Of a stretch of DNA of 64,000 bases, positions 1 to 6,393 are shown one piece after another. Both the position numbers and the translations under genes were made by a program. Source of the stretch: a virus; IMG/VR virus record IMGVR_UViG_3300037424_000906, positions 1-64,000 of that record; one strand, written 5' to 3'. Every line of letters starts with the position of its first letter. Position 1 is the stretch's first letter. The notes below the pieces were generated by a model. It did not search any database. It was given only the letters and a program-made list of their open reading frames with translations, and was not told where the DNA came from.

Positions 1-223
1 CCCGCCCCGCGCCTGCCCAGCTCCGCCCGACAACCCGGCCCCGCCCAACGCCTTCCGTCCCGAATCGACTACCCGAATCGACTGCCCACGCCAACTCAGC
101 CCGGCCCCGGCCGACTCTTCCCGCCCCGGATCGACTACCCATCCCTCTCCTCCCCTGACCTGCTCTCCCCGGCCCGACAAGCCTTCACTTTCCGCCCCGG
201 ATCCCGCCATCCCATCCGACCAG
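1..223. repeat. Phased pentamer array (nCC-NN) split into units by CGAC-NN; candidate guide-RNA array for the adjacent Cas7-like gene; truncated by window start
   Basis: Manual parse gives 40 in-phase pentamers, all with C at position 3 (21 start CCC, 30 start NCC) and variable last two bases. Units end CGACAA/CGACTA/CGACTG/CGACCA at about 33, 71, 84, 137, 180, 222. Confidence 0.85.
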
Positions 224-239
224 CCAAGGAGAAATTCCA

Positions 240-908
240 GTGAGCGTGTTCGACAGCTTCAAAACCGAGATGTACCCGCACCGGTTCACCGGCCAGCTCA
301 CCGTCGGCGTCATTGCTGGGGGCACTCCGACCGATCCCAAGGTCGCCGAGGGCTGGCTCAAGACCAAGCTCGGCATCGACAAGGAAGACCTCATCCGCGA
401 GAAGGTCGCCGAGACCATGATCGAGCGCGGCATTACCGCCGATGAGGCCACCGCCATCGTTAGCGACCACAAGCACCTCAACGGCTTCAAGCGCGACCCC
501 GAGCGCGGCCTCTACATCGAGGGCCGCCAGCTCAAGGCCGCCCTCAAAGAAGCCGCCTCCGTTGCGGTTGCCGCCGGGAAGCTCACCTCCCGTGGCTGGG
601 GCAAGACGAACAAGGGCCTGCTTTCCTACCTCGCCGAGCACGTGTTCGTCGTCGAAGACCGCCTCTACCTCGGCGTCATCGAGCCGTCCGGCATCGCCCA
701 GCGATTCGTCCACACCTTCCGTGGCACCGGCATCCAGTACGAGGAGTACGTGGAGAAGGCGCAGATCGACTTCACGGTCATCGCCGACCACGACTTCACG
801 ACGAAGGAGTGGGCTGCGATCTGGACGTGCGGCGAGCAGAACGGCATCGGCGCTTCCCGCTCGCAGGGCTTCGGCCGCTACGAAGTCACCCGCTGGGACA
901 AGTCCTAG
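240..908 (+). CDS. Stand-alone Cas7/Csm3-like RAMP-superfamily protein
   Basis: LYIEGRQLKAALKEAA resembles the RAMP IPGSSLKGALR motif; C-terminal Gly-rich loop GIGASRSQGFGRYEV; 222 aa; RBS AAGGAG at 226-231. Confidence 0.8.
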   Translation: MSVFDSFKTEMYPHRFTGQLTVGVIAGGTPTDPKVAEGWLKTKLGIDKEDLIREKVAETMIERGITADEATAIVSDHKHLNGFKRDPERGLYIEGRQLKAALKEAASVAVAAGKLTSRGWGKTNKGLLSYLAEHVFVVEDRLYLGVIEPSGIAQRFVHTFRGTGIQYEEYVEKAQIDFTVIADHDFTTKEWAAIWTCGEQNGIGASRSQGFGRYEVTRWDKS

Positions 909-978
909 CCACGTTCCTAGCTCTTCCTCACAGTTCCGGCCTGCTTCTACGGCCGAGGTCACCCATCTACGGGTGGCT

Positions 979-1019
979 GGTGATCCGCCGCCCGACCTCC
1001 CCGGGGGCGGCGGGTCACC
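979..1019 (+). terminator. Long GC-rich hairpin after the RAMP gene (terminator-like)
   Basis: Arms GGTGATCCGCCGCCC and GGGCGGCGGGTCACC; no U-tract. Confidence 0.5.
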
Positions 1020-1098
1020 GATCAAGACGAACGAAGGCTCCGGGCGCTTACGACGCCTAGAGCCTCCGCATTACCGGAGTCAACGGAAATGAGGTCCG

Positions 1099-4000
1099 AT
1101 GAACACCGACATTCAGGGTAGCGCGTCGAACGTCGATGAGCTGCCAACCCTGACGCCCGAGGCACTGGCCTCGTCCCCCAGGTTCGCTGACCGCGACTGG
1201 CGTTCCGCCGACGGCCTGGACCTGTTCAACACCATCCGCGCCCGACTGGGTCTTGCCGCCGCCCAGGTCTTGTGGCTGGACGCCTGCGACATCTTCCACA
1301 CCGCGCAGGCTGCCGCCGACGTGGCACCGCTGGTGCTGCTCGTCGAGCACGACACGCGGAGCAGCGCGGTCTACACCTGCTACGACGATCACAAGGGCAA
1401 CCCGCTGACGTATCCGACCGCCCGACTGAAGTTGCTGTACGAGCGCAAGTCGCGGCCGGCGCGGTACGCCGACGGCACCCGGTACCTGCTGATCATGCCG
1501 GTCGTGAAGCGATGACCGATCTCGCCGAACGCTTCTGTCACCTGCCCGGTAAGCCGTACCAGACCGGTGCCGGCTGGACCGTCCGCTGTGCATGCGGCTG
1601 GGTCACCCCGTACGCCCAGCTGTCGGCACTCCTCGCGACCAACGAGTACACGGTTCTGCACCTCGGCGGTGCCCGATGACCGCCCAGTACGTGTACGTCG
1701 TCTGCCGTGGTGAGCACGGTGAGGGTCACGACCCGGTGTCGGTGCACGCCGACTACGACGATGCTGTTGCGTCCGTGGCTGAGGAGATCGGCGACCGGCC
1801 GATCCGGGTCGCGGCCAAGCACGTGTACGTGGTCGCGCTGTACGGCTGCGATGAGATCTGGATCTACGGCATGCCCGTACAGGGCGGTGCCCGATGAGCG
1901 TCCTGCCCGCCCGCCAGTACCTGGCCCTGTGCGTTGACCGGGCCATGGTCCACGCGACTGCCGGCGACTACCCGGCCGCGATCTCCTCGTTCACGCAGGA
2001 CGTTGCCCAGCACCCGCGCACCGCCTGGATCGCCGCGCACGACCTGACCGTGCCGTTGCTGCTCGTCGACTGCGGCGACCCGGTGCGGTTCCGTGCAGCC
2101 CTTGAGGCCTTCGTCGTCACGGATTCGCGGCGACGTTCCCGGCCCACCTCTCGTCACCTGATCGGAGCCTGACCATGGAGACCATCCCAATCCTGACCCC
2201 GGCCGTTTCGGACTACGGCCCGATCCTCGAAGCCCGGCACCCGTCCACCGGCAATGTTCTGGTCACGGCCCGGCGCTCGCACCTTGACCACGACGAGTGG
2301 ATCGGCTGGTGGGTGTCCGGTGGCGACATGTCCGAGGTCGTTGCCACGAAGGTGTCGGCCCGGCTGCTGCTGGTGGAGTTCGCGACGCATCTGCTGGCGG
2401 ATGCCTTGCGTGACTGCCCGGCGGGTGGCGCGTACGGGGCGCACAGCTTGGCGTGGCGTGAGGGTGCCGACGACTGCGACATGTGCGGTCGGGCGTCGTG
2501 GATGAGTGCGCTGACCGGTAGCTCCACCCGGATCGAGGTGTCGGCATGAGCGACCTCTACGCCGTCCGCGTCGCGCTGGAGCAGGGTCTCGGTGCCGCCG
2601 AAGCGCTGAGTACCTGGGTCACGAACCACAAGCCGCTCGCGCTGAACATCACACGCCGCCGGACCGAGGCCATCCGCGATGGTCTGCGCGCACTCGCCCG
2701 GCTGGAGCAGTCCAGCAAGCCGTGCGACCGCCCGCACATCGAGGTCGAGGTGGACTCCGGCTGCCGTTGCCACGTCGTGCGGATGCCGCCCTGCTCGTGG
2801 TGTGAGAACGGCGGTGAGCAGTCATGACCGTGTTCTCCGCGCACCAGTACCTCGTCGGTGGTCTCGTCACCCACGGCGGTGACATCGAGTGGCACATCGA
2901 CGAGCAGCCCGCCGGCTTGACCCGCGTGTGGGATGCCGAGGGTGAGGCGTGGGGTGAGTTCACCGACAGCATCGGCGTGCACTGGACGCCGGTTGACAGC
3001 GACGGCTGGCCGATCCCGGACCACCGCGAGGTGACGTGGGCGGAACTGCTCCAGGAGTGGGGCCCAGCCACCGACGAGGCTCCGACCGCCGAGCCGGTGG
3101 CGGCTACCCGTACGCCCTGCGATGCCGAGAGCCCGACCTGCTACGCGATGCCTGACGGCACCGTCTCCTGTCGCTGCATCATCTGCCACCGGTGCGGCAG
3201 GCACACGGGCAACAGCAACCAGGGTCACTACTGGGCGAGGTGCAAGGTCACCAAGACGATCCGCGACTTCCACTTCTGCTGCCCCGATGACTGCGAACTG
3301 GAGGCCAAAGCGGCTGCCGTCCGCGCTACCGCCGAAGTGCTGCTGTCCGAGACGCCCGGTGCGGGGCGGGACGGCGAGCTGTGACCGGCCTCGGCCTGCT
3401 CACGATCTGCGCCGTCGGCGCCTACTTCCTGATCTTCGCTCTGTACCGCTCACCGAAAGGAACCGACCAATGAGCACCACCGACCCGGTTGCGGCGTTCG
3501 TCGCGGCCTACAACACCGCCGAGTCCGAGCGTCTCGGTTACGCCTACAAGAGCGCACGGATCGTCGCTTCCGACGAGTCGCTGGTTGACGCCGTCGATGC
3601 GGTGCGCAGGCCATTGATCGCCGAACTTGGCGAGGCGAACGCGCGACTGCGTGCCGTCAGCACCGTGAAGTGCTGGACGGACGAGGACGGCAGGCGGTTC
3701 GTGTTCGCCAGCGACCTGCTTGCCGCCGTCGACCCGGAGGCTGCGGCTCTGGTCGCTCAGGCACGGCTTGCCGAGGCGACCCGATGAGCCCCGATTTCGT
3801 GGTCGGCATGGCCACCGGCATCCTCCTCAGTGCTGGTGGCGGCTGCCTGGCCCTCATCTTCACTGCCAAGCGTGACGCGCCGACCCCGGCCGAGGAACTC
3901 GCTGACACCCAGAACGCGCAGTGGCGTGCGGCCCGTCAGGCGGCTGGTCTCAGCTCCGAACTCGCGATGCCCGACGACATCCGGATCAGCATGGGTCGAC

Positions 4001-6393
4001 GCTTCCGGAACGCGGTCGTGGTGACGGCGCGCTGGGCGGGCCGGGCAGTCCGCTGGACGTGGACGCTGACCGCCCGGTTGGCCAGGCGTCTGGCCGCGCA
4101 GCTGCGTCGCCAGCCCGTGGTGATCCCGCCGTGGTCTGAGCACACAGACTTGGGGCCGGAAACCAACGAGCCCGAGACGGCACCCGAGGGCGAGCAGCAG
4201 CCGACCGTGCCCGAGCTGGAGCCGGTGATGGTTGTCATCCCGCCGTGGACCGACCGGCAGGGCGAGCGTCGGGCGCACGTGCCCGCGCATGCCGCCGCCG
4301 AGGTCGCCGCCCCGGTTGCTGAGCGTCGGGTGCTCGACTTCACCCTTGAGGTGCCGCCAGTCTTCGCCGGGCTGAAGAACGCGATGGAGATCCCGACCGG
4401 GCTCCTGCTCATCGTCCCGCCGAAGGTTGAGCCCGCCGGGGTGCTCGCCGAGCTCGCCGCCGAGGTCCGCGACGCCGTGACGGTCGGTGCCTGATGGCCG
4501 ACCTGAATCCGCCGATCGGTGCGCGCGTGCGCATCACCACCACCTGGCCGCAGGGCACCGTTGTTGCCCACGAGGGCATCTTCACCGGCTGGCACGAACC
4601 CGACTGGGAGTTGGACGGGCACTTCCGGACTCCGTACTCGGAGGCGGGATGGATGAACAGCTTCCGTAAGTCCGGGGAGGACCCGACGGTCACCGTCGAG
4701 ATCCTGGAACTGCCCGCGCCCGAGGAACCACCCAACGGCACCGTGCTGCAGGAGACCGGCACCGGCTGGGTGTGGCGGCACGACTACTCCGAGGAGTTCG
4801 GAGACAAGCACTGGTGGAGCGACGGCGACGACCAGGGCCACACCTGGACGGAAGTGTGCGACCGCTTGAAGGCGAGCTTTGTCGGCAGCTTCGTGCGCCT
4901 CGTGCCGGCTCCCGTAGTCAAGTTGCCGTGGTCGCTCGGCTCGTGCCAGATGACCGCCACGGTTGATGCGTCCGGCAACGGCTTCATCGACCTGACCGTG
5001 GGCAACGGGCCGTACACCGCCGACGAGGTGGAGCAGATTGCCGCCGCGTTGCTGTCCGCCGCCCGCGAGGTAGCCCGGTGAGCGCCCTCATCACCTTCGC
5101 CTGCGTCACACTCGCTGGCTGCGTGGTCGTCGGCATTGCCGCCGCTGTGGCCGGGAGCCGCAAGCAGCGCTCGACCGCACTCGCCGCACCACTGCTCTCC
5201 GACGACTACTACCCCGAGCCCGAAGAGCTGGTGCCGCCGAAGACCGGCAGCACCGTCCGCGAGTGGGGCGAGTACTTCGACGAGCAGAACCGCCGCCGCA
5301 AGCTTGACGCCCGGAAGGGGCAGCCGTGAACCTCCGCCTCAACCTCCGTGTTGCATGCGTCAGCCTTGCCCGCCGCTGGGCCGACAAGACCCTGCGCGAC
5401 GACATGGACCGCTACGACACCGAGAACATGGAACTGGCCACTGAACTCCTCGACGCCCGCGAGGAGCTGGAGTCCCAGGACGCCGGGCTCGCCGAGCAGG
5501 ACAAGCTGATCCGCAAGCTTCGCGACGAGAACTACGCCCTCCACGAGCGCTGTGCCGACCTCACCGACCGGGTTGAGGCGTACGAGCGGCGCGACGCGAC
5601 GGACAAGCGGCGGCCCCCGTACCTCACGCCCACCGTCGTCACGCTGGACGTGCACCCGGACCCGGCGGTGCAGCCGTGATCCGCGATCTGCTCCCTGACC
5701 TCGGCAGCGAGTCCGTACTCATCGCCGCCGCTGTCCTGCTTGCCGCCGGCTTCGGGCTCCTCGGCTTCGTCGTCCGCGATCTTGGAACACGCCGATGACC
5801 TTCCTCGTTGCCGCGCTCTTGGCTCTCCTCACCGCCGCCGTCTCGGTCGGCATCCGGCTTGCCAACCACAACGTGCGCTTGCTCGCCGAGCGGGAAACTG
5901 CCGACGCCCAGCGCATCGCCGACGCTAACTGGCTGCGGCAGTACGACGCGGACTTCAGCCCCGAGCGGCGGCTCGACCTCATGACCCGTGTCGCGAAGGG
6001 CGAGCCCCTCGTCGACATCTGGCTCTCGGATTGGAGCGACCTGTGAGCGACTGGAAAGACTCCCTCAACCGGGCGCTGCGCCCCGAGGTGCCGCAGGCTT
6101 CCGCCGAGCTGCTCGCGCGCCAGGAGCAGGTGACCCCGGCATGGATCGCAGACCGGGGCGTGGACTTCAGCGGCCTCCCCAGCTCGGAGGTTGTCAACCT
6201 CAAGTCACGGATCGGCTGCCTCCAAGTCGACCTCGCCAGCGTCCGCGCCGACCTCGCAAGGACGCAGGCCGAACTGAAGGCGCTGCGGGATCGGCCTGAG
6301 ACCCTGGCCGACGCCGAGTTGGCGCACCGGCAGGAGATGGCCCTAGACGTGGCGTTCAAGCGTCGCCAGGACCGCGACGAGGTGTGCCCGTGA
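1099..6393 (+). other. Run of about 15 translationally coupled small hypothetical phage genes (1099-1515, 1512-1679, 1676-1897, 1894-2172, 2175-2549, 2546-2827, 2824-3384, 3470-3787, 3784-4494, 4494-5081, 5078-5329, 5326-5679, 5795-6046, 6043-6393)
   Basis: ATGA/GTGA stop-start overlaps, one strand, GC3-rich codons; some have N-terminal hydrophobic segments. Confidence 0.7.

Follow-up and report, generated by a model that had tools for sequence, protein, structure and literature searches.

The window analyzed here, bases 1 to 64,000 of the viral contig IMGVR_UViG_3300037424_000906 (G000), begins with a C-rich array of guide units that leads into the gene for a minimal RAMP protein, and we consider it very probable that this locus is a VIPR (Viral Interference Programmable Repeat) system, made up of a partner gene, the guide-unit array, and vipr, all on one strand. 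The basis for this reading is the RAMP fold of the protein, its homology to an experimentally validated Vipr, the period-5 grammar of the array, the hypervariable pair of bases (NN) in each repeat, synteny, and two one-base-skip matches of guides from sister phages. VIPR is a CRISPR-related phage system first described in 2026 (bioRxiv 10.64898/2026.04.26.720920, 10.64898/2026.04.26.720927); it forms a class of RNA-guided DNA binders thought to predate CRISPR, of which only the GGY type of Enterobacteria and Pseudomonas phages is characterized in depth. The locus is a further example of the published system, with an unusual guide scaffold, and its use here is probably the silencing of rival phages. 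A likeness to VIPR had been suggested in the first-pass annotation of this DNA, and it is borne out by the published system and by the profile homology described below.

The RAMP gene and its ribosome-binding site are located as follows.

226–231, plus strand: Shine-Dalgarno sequence AAGGAG of vipr
240–908, plus strand: vipr, encoding a 222-amino-acid minimal RAMP with a G-rich loop at G202-R213

The vipr open reading frame (ORF) starts with GTG and has a GC3 of 0.91. It had been described at first pass as a Cas7-like RAMP of 222 amino acids with two characteristic motifs, and a fold comparison with Cas7/Csm3 had been proposed; both motifs, YIEGRQLKAALKE and GIGASRSQGFGR, are present, and the fold is confidently that of a Cas7/Csm3-type RAMP. 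Searches of Pfam and PHROGs gave no match for Vipr, and the PDB sequence profile gave only a weak match to the Csm4 G-loop (E = 0.6). The family, in which G27, P30, E133, and R207 are invariant, has 1,814 relatives at the level of 90%-identity clusters and forms 599 clusters at 50%; more than 100 relatives are 76 to 90% identical to the intact Vipr of this phage. The clade ranges over high-GC phages of Actinomycetota, some Chloroflexota, and some cyanophages.

The type II VIPR of Escherichia phage SUSP1 is described in the same two preprints as Vipr together with vap1 and four vrRNAs. We placed SUSP1 vipr at KT454805.2 28,474-29,061 (minus strand), where H17, E71, M72, R138, C173, D177, W178, and R179 of the product agree with the numbering of the structural preprint. 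Comparison by hhalign of a profile of the 60-sequence family of the window protein with a profile of the 26-sequence SUSP1-type family returned 91.2% probability and an E value of 9.8e-7 over 128 columns, from helix 1 through the G-rich loop; the family profile compared with the single SUSP1 sequence returned only 8.8% (E = 0.004). Judged by this profile comparison with the SUSP1 family, the window protein is a Vipr homologue.

The full 103,779-bp record has a single vipr copy and one RAMP gene. With a working control, no Cas1 was detected in the 104-kb record, and no CRISPR-like direct repeats or repeat-spacer array were found in the 64 kb of the window; the neighboring ORFs had no cas match in Pfam or PHROG, other cas families not being searched one by one. 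Rfam, at gathering thresholds, matched no family in the whole 64-kb window and hence no tRNA family. The locus had been proposed to be a non-CRISPR one, with which these results agree. A CRISPR array was also considered for the tract upstream of vipr and was rejected, there being no repeat-spacer array or CRISPR-like repeats.

This tract, bases 1 to 225, is non-coding and 54% C. Parsing by dynamic programming over 1 to 225, with pentamers of the form NN + S-Y-C, yields 36 pentamers, and these are set off by 8-nt marks, GAC-T-N-CCC (matching GAC-N3-CC), that start at positions 29, 67, 80, 133, and 176, with a closing mark at 218. The parse scores 137, compared with 60 ± 7 (maximum, 85) in 500 shuffles, a z of about 10. 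Its elements are given here with the NN bases that they carry.

1–28, plus strand: cut end of a guide unit, five pentamers, NN = GC GC TG AG CG, from the parse
29–66, plus strand: guide unit, mark GACAACCC plus six pentamers, NN = GG CG AA CT GT GA
67–79, plus strand: stub unit, mark GACTACCC plus one pentamer, from the parse
80–132, plus strand: guide unit, mark GACTGCCC plus nine pentamers, NN = AC AA AG GG CG GA TT GC GG
133–175, plus strand: guide unit, mark GACTACCC plus seven pentamers, NN = AT TC TC TG TG TC GG
176–217, plus strand: last guide unit, mark GACAAGCC plus about seven pentamers, with an irregularity of 1 to 2 nt near the end
218–225, plus strand: closing mark GACCAGCC, which abuts the ribosome-binding site, from the sequence

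The tract is thus a series of six short units, and each mark adds 3 nt, shifting the register at the unit boundaries. The first-pass annotation had counted 40 pentamers in one phase; this is corrected here to 36 in six units, and the ten pentamers that it quoted are in phase and form one unit, that at 80 to 132. Its observations that a C is invariant at the third base of the triplet (36 of 36 pentamers end in C) and that the tract runs up to the ribosome-binding site (the closing mark adjoins AAGGAG) hold as well. The Fourier peak lies at about 4.75 rather than 5 because the register shifts by 3 nt per mark. When the 103.8-kb contig is ranked by the period-5 power of C in 100-nt windows at 10-nt steps, windows at the contig ends rank first and third.

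The window opens at contig base 1, so the array is cut. The rest of it is found at the opposite end of the contig (G000 103,648-103,779), where the first array mark and the upstream gene's stop codon overlap, as TGACTACCC. The contig ends would join in register, with the unit at 1 to 28 continuing from G000 103,745-103,779; retrieval of the upstream sequence, as had been advised for the full array, therefore supplied the missing part, while the join across the contig ends is unproven. The contig of the source run itself likewise breaks at position 16. Besides the three complete units listed above at 29 to 66, 80 to 132, and 133 to 175, complete units read TG CG AT TG CA GA CG GA and TA CG TG CC GC AA CA GA.

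Two duplications are visible in the array. The stub at 67 to 79 repeats the boundary before it in tandem over 13 nt (tandem repeat 59 to 87, period 13), and the unit at 80 to 132 contains an internal duplication of 20 nt, or four pentamers, with NN bases that have diverged between the copies. A related population in a sediment metagenome has this array shorter by four pentamers, exactly 20 nt, at position 112 (window 112 to 131). This suggests that the array grows by in-register duplication followed by change of the NN bases.

Plus-strand frames are open over 1 to 243 and 2 to 445, and CCN is a proline codon, so the tract could be imagined as the proline-rich tail of the upstream gene or as an N-terminal extension of the RAMP gene. 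The period is 5 and not 3, however; the marks displace the register by 3, 4, or 2 nt; and relatives show non-triplet indels, one of them of 20 nt. Moreover, the upstream gene stops at a conserved codon that overlaps the first mark, and vipr has its own Shine-Dalgarno sequence and start, aligned across the family. That the tract might be the tail of a coding gene had been named from the start as what would speak against a guide array, and with this evidence we give a coding tract almost no credence.

To place the array in a wider frame, 19 related loci were examined, of which 13 are from IMG/VR, five are genome or metagenome-assembled genome loci (Nocardiopsis tropica, Nocardiopsis sp., Streptomyces, Jatrophihabitantaceae, and Caldilineaceae), and one is from Microcystis phage Mae-JY09. 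The N. tropica locus is a prophage relative in strain JCM 10877, with a Vipr 78% identical to that of the window. All 19 have a period-5 array beside vipr, either upstream or downstream, which answers the first-pass question of whether homologues adjoin such arrays, and in all 19 the C-phased strand is the gene strand. This holds across three layouts: partner gene, array, and vipr, the commonest and the one present here; partner gene, vipr, hairpin, and array (L024, and L014 with vipr, hairpin, and array, its upstream side being cut by the contig end); and vipr, array, and hairpin (Mae-JY09). In loci whose array ends were read, the array takes up the whole interval between a stop codon and whichever ribosome-binding site or start comes next, and the passage from closing mark to AGGAG is common to relatives with the array upstream of vipr. 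In keeping with VIPR as a system borne mainly by phages and proviruses, carriers of the VIPR-type locus comprise viral contigs, actinobacterial and Chloroflexota genome loci, and one cultured cyanophage.

A sequence logo was built from 119 mark-anchored units in 13 array regions of 12 genomes. Information content is near zero at the two N positions, which are followed by C/G (59%/23%), C/T (77%/13%), and C (93 to 97%). The first-pass annotation had proposed a CCC/NN scaffold, or GGG/NN on the opposite strand; a conserved triplet with a free pair is indeed found, with looser letters than proposed, S-Y-C on the gene strand or G-R-S on the other. Mark-to-mark spacings cluster at 33, 38, 43, 48, and 53 nt, that is, 5n + 3. 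Counted from the left mark, the register is kept, with a C frequency of 0.87 to 0.97 in every pentamer, compared with only 0.67 to 0.83 when counted from the right mark, which places a slack of 0, +1, or -1 nt just before the next mark.

Bases 1 to 3000 of the window gave no megablast match to cultured phages, and tblastn gave one phage, Mae-JY09. Its locus (L018; PP395641.1 37,713-38,976) encodes a Vipr with 35% identity, followed by an array of about 400 nt with the same CCGACTNCCC marks. The annotation of the Mae-JY09 locus consists only of a hypothetical protein and unannotated DNA. The phage studied here is uncultured and its host is probably actinobacterial; its contig (66% GC) is linear according to IMG/VR, with a CheckV completeness estimate of 92%. 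Relatives with near-identical vipr modules are phages of 41 to 60 kb, compared with about 104 kb here, and the module therefore seems mobile between unrelated phage backbones.

The position of the tract at the ends of a linear contig, together with the short direct repeats GAATCGACT, would also suit a function at the level of DNA, for instance as iterons, as operator repeats that bind a protein, or as a site of partition or packaging, with the RAMP gene as an incidental neighbor. Complete relatives, however, carry the array in mid-genome and always beside vipr, in distant hosts. Binding sites conserve sequence, whereas here two of five bases are free and three fixed, and unit lengths are quantized in fives; in addition, guides match coding motifs by a two-in-three rule, and the neighboring protein is homologous to the RNA-guided Vipr. 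We regard a DNA-level element as very improbable.

For the VIPR reading, the free bases are of most interest. Orthologous copies of one guide in three phages have the NN bases in common (A[T/G] AC A[T/G] TG CC AG TC TG), while their triplets differ. Judging from this guide, the 20-nt population variant, and the skip matches, the two free bases carry the guide information. A local target search was performed with 103 cleanly parsed guides against 11 related phage genomes and nine further related loci, with arrays masked, a search space of 1.28 Mb counting both strands. With a one-base skip, two of the 53 guides of at least seven NN match perfectly, compared with a mean of 0.2 perfect matches for order-shuffled guides. 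Skips of 0 or 2 give none, and a skip of 3 gives a single match, probably to a similar guide in an unmasked array. In this local search, best matches with at least one mismatch are no commoner than for order-shuffled guides.

Both perfect matches are of guides from sister phages, and both lie on codon positions 1 and 2 of conserved motifs, with the wobble base skipped. Guide 1 is the last guide before vipr in G007, the IMG/VR contig behind L011, and reads KVAEGWL of vipr in eight phages that differ at wobble bases, this window included, where its site is the following.

339–358, minus strand: predicted binding site of the sister-phage guide, K34-L40 (KVAEGWL), NN = AG CA CC TC GC AC TT, 14 of 14 bases

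Guide 2 matches 16 of 16 bases of VRGPHGLG, a Walker A motif, in an ORF of about 490 amino acids that also has the Walker B-like LLYLLDEA. From its size and Walker A/B motifs only, this ORF is probably a terminase large subunit; a Pfam search with it gave no match. Matching of this kind, including by guides directed at the vipr of rivals, is what has been published for vrRNAs. The first-pass proposal that the NN pairs form a gapped guide is supported by the NN bases kept in the orthologous guide and by the two skip matches, both from sister phages; this phage's own guides gave no convincing target, as described below. Over every guide parsed in the 19 arrays, NN usage agrees better with the antisense than with the sense of codon positions 1 and 2 (log-likelihood difference, 63), the best mixture being about 30% forward, and both perfect targets are in antisense orientation. 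Targeting is therefore probably strand-biased; published type II guides hit both strands.

The steps from transcription, and the strand that it uses, through processing and RNA binding to silencing are inferred, as is the existence of targets for the phage's own guides, in the following scheme. The array would be transcribed, most likely with both genes, from the gene strand, and the transcript would be cut at or near the 8-nt marks to give guides of about 33 to 53 nt. Each pentamer would be bound by one Vipr protomer, which would bury the conserved triplet, S-Y-C as read on the gene strand, and leave the two variable bases exposed. The 5 to 11 exposed dinucleotides could then base-pair with two of every three bases of a DNA target, so that a guide would track codon positions 1 and 2 of motifs conserved in rival phages, whatever the wobble base. 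The target would be silenced by this binding.

The locus shares with the type II system of SUSP1 a lone minimal RAMP of about 200 amino acids, borne by a phage in which neither a CRISPR array nor Cas1 is found; a non-coding gene-strand array with a 5-nt step and three conserved plus two free bases; the two-in-three match rule, seen here for the sister-phage guides; and a small partner gene in the operon. It differs in that the partner here is upstream, helical, and without a recognizable DNA-binding fold, and in that at least vrRNA1 of SUSP1, unlike the units here, has its own sigma-70-like promoter. Published vrRNAs carry GGY-NN on the gene strand, are about 100 nt long, and have a structured 3' tail.

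Several observations weigh against the VIPR reading. Three are further departures from SUSP1: the gene-strand triplet is S-Y-C instead of GGY, the units are 33 to 53 nt long with an 8-nt mark and not RNAs of about 100 nt, and there is no tail structure where SUSP1 has a pseudoknotted 3' tail. The type II residues that read G are also replaced, R138 by E168, D177 by A205 (in 54 of 60 sequences), and W/Y178 by S/T206, residue-level alignment between these distant Vipr families being uncertain. The shuffle control is modest, as 1 of 40 shuffles also reached two perfect matches. The vipr-directed guide of G007 matches its own phage's vipr perfectly (G007 790-809, codons NVAEGWL), which counts here because self-matching would not be expected of a weapon directed only at rivals; it suggests autoregulation or tolerated self-targeting instead of a purely anti-rival role. 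Public runs that contain DNA of the locus number five, all of them DNA runs and none RNA. Finally, exact-match searches of IMG/VR and metagenomes gave no convincing target for this phage's own guides. The 9-NN guide, in the exact two-in-three pattern, has no match in IMG/VR and 24 in metagenomes, which fall in several unrelated gene families and GC contents and are at about chance level. No exact match was obtained for two 8-NN guides that included the constant GA at the end; without GA, in IMG/VR, one has 59 matches, about 47 of them in a single phage population of 53% GC and the others in a few unrelated families, and the other has 2. The 11-NN guide joined across the contig ends has no exact match.

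This failure to find targets, together with the one-pentamer stub at 67 to 79 and the irregular last unit, would suit a decayed or domesticated relic that keeps the rhythm and whose own guides no longer direct anything. Against such decay, the invariant C is kept in all 36 pentamers, and the protein is intact, with its many close relatives at 76 to 90% identity. The target searches were for exact matches only, and the collections searched need not contain the rival phages. We hold a relic to be very improbable.

The lack of a conserved 3' tail separates the locus from type II only and not from VIPR, for the preprint also describes tail-less "staggered" arrays, with the repeat variants NNNGG, YNNNG, and NNNNG (figure S18 legend and Methods) and seven types in all. 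As in staggered arrays, the guides here stand back to back without a long tail, the end of one being the start of the next, and the pentamer consensus is loosened. The described staggered arrays have 1-nt overlaps and a G-based consensus, whereas here an 8-nt mark adds 3 nt and the gene-strand base is C. A second comparison is with the vipr-targeting vrRNAs of SUSP1-family phages, which aim at early codons of the vipr of rivals (bioRxiv 10.64898/2026.10.15.759431). The sister-phage guide resembles them in covering codons 34 to 40 of vipr in eight phages. The published ones, however, are mostly solo guides in vipr-less phages, with a lower self-score, whereas the array that contains the guide here is accompanied by vipr, and the guide is a perfect match to this vipr of its own phage. 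A further comparison is with the Cas7/Csm3 backbone subunits of CRISPR-Cas effectors of types III and VII: no repeat-spacer array, Cas1, or large subunit is detected here, the step is 5 nt compared with 6 nt, and sequence identity is only 12 to 15%.

Which strand is the guide is a separate matter, and we lean toward the gene (C-rich) strand. It is favored by the same orientation in 19 loci and three layouts, by the fact that the proven vrRNAs of SUSP1 lie on the vipr strand, and by the array leaving no space for an antisense promoter and terminator of its own. One relative has TTGACA-N17-TATCTT ahead of the entire sense unit, and strong hairpins follow vipr in this phage. The replacement of the G-reading type II residues points the same way, as does the alignment of SUSP1 R179, which stacks on a pyrimidine, with the invariant R207; this G-loop likeness is kept as supporting, not decisive. 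In its full form, with the GGY scaffold swapped for the pyrimidine triplet S-Y-C, an 8-nt 5' handle GACUNCCC that sets the register, and guides mostly complementary to the coding strand of the target, we put a C-rich guide at about an even chance. The proposed handle has a likeness in CRISPR RNAs (crRNAs), which carry an 8-nt 5' tag.

The same system could instead use the opposite, G-rich strand, with guides of the form G-R-S-NN and a minimal 3' tail GGG-N-AG-UC, antisense to vipr. The minus-strand triplet of G (about 95%), G/A (77%/13%), and G/C (59%/23%) resembles GGY and the NNNGG and NNNNG variants, and only this reading fits the published consensus. Here the 3' end of each unit would set the register, as SUSP1 repeats run into a fixed 3' tail, and the minus-strand mark GGGTAGTC is identical at 7 of 8 bases to the junction of repeat and tail, GGGTAGTT, in two SUSP1 vrRNAs; a hairpin between vipr and a downstream array could end convergent transcripts. 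The constant gene-strand orientation of the C phase in 19 of 19 loci and of the SUSP1 vrRNAs tells against a G-rich guide, as do the replacement of the residues that read G1 and G2 and the invariance of the pyrimidine-stacking residue (R179/R207). An antisense promoter and terminator would also have to sit inside coding sequence; no promoter-like site is seen in 1 to 1300, and the one promoter-like site in a relative precedes the sense unit. A G-rich guide is accordingly, in our view, a serious possibility, if the less probable of the two strands.

The folding of the tract on either strand is no better than that of shuffles (z of +1.2 and +1.4), as would be expected of a protein-coated guide, and a scan of 1 to 1300 for promoters and terminators found nothing. 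Downstream of vipr, one further feature was recorded.

957–1019, plus strand: two GC-rich hairpins 3' of vipr, one with a 15-bp stem, from the fold

The fold of 905 to 1100 (spacer, 909 to 1098) contains several GC hairpins (-90.7 kcal/mol; z of -3.8) and no U-run. Hairpins after vipr are present only in some relatives, and those at 957 to 1019 are probably a terminator, or terminator cluster, of the vap-like gene, array, and vipr unit rather than a conserved RNA.

The partner gene lies at the opposite contig end (G000 103,133-103,650) and encodes a helical protein. Its homologues, of 160 to 195 amino acids, lie without exception next to either vipr or the array, in loci from Actinomycetota through to Chloroflexota, and were seen in L005, L006, L008, L010, L012, L020, L023, and L024. 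The protein model (pLDDT of 87) has no recognizable fold, and searches of Pfam, PHROG, PDB, and BFVD gave no match that assigns a function. We designate the gene a candidate accessory vap gene; for the vap genes of VIPR systems, a part in DNA interaction is predicted.

Elsewhere in the window, positions 4117 to 4139 and 4231 to 4253 form a direct DNA repeat that encodes a repeated peptide, V[VI]IPPW.., within the ORF at 3670 to 4494. The product of this ORF has 274 amino acids and no family match.

The clade described here differs from type II in its scaffold letters, its guide boundaries, and its RNA-contacting residues. As a cultured cyanophage, Mae-JY09 is tractable for the strand question. 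Should the guide prove to be the C-rich strand, the VIPR code would have scaffold letters that can evolve and be rewritten, and the clade would offer a second, orthogonal pair of protein and scaffold with which to program repression in Streptomyces and other high-GC hosts. The sister-phage guide that reads vipr codons fits the published conflict of VIPR against VIPR and extends this picture to another phylum.

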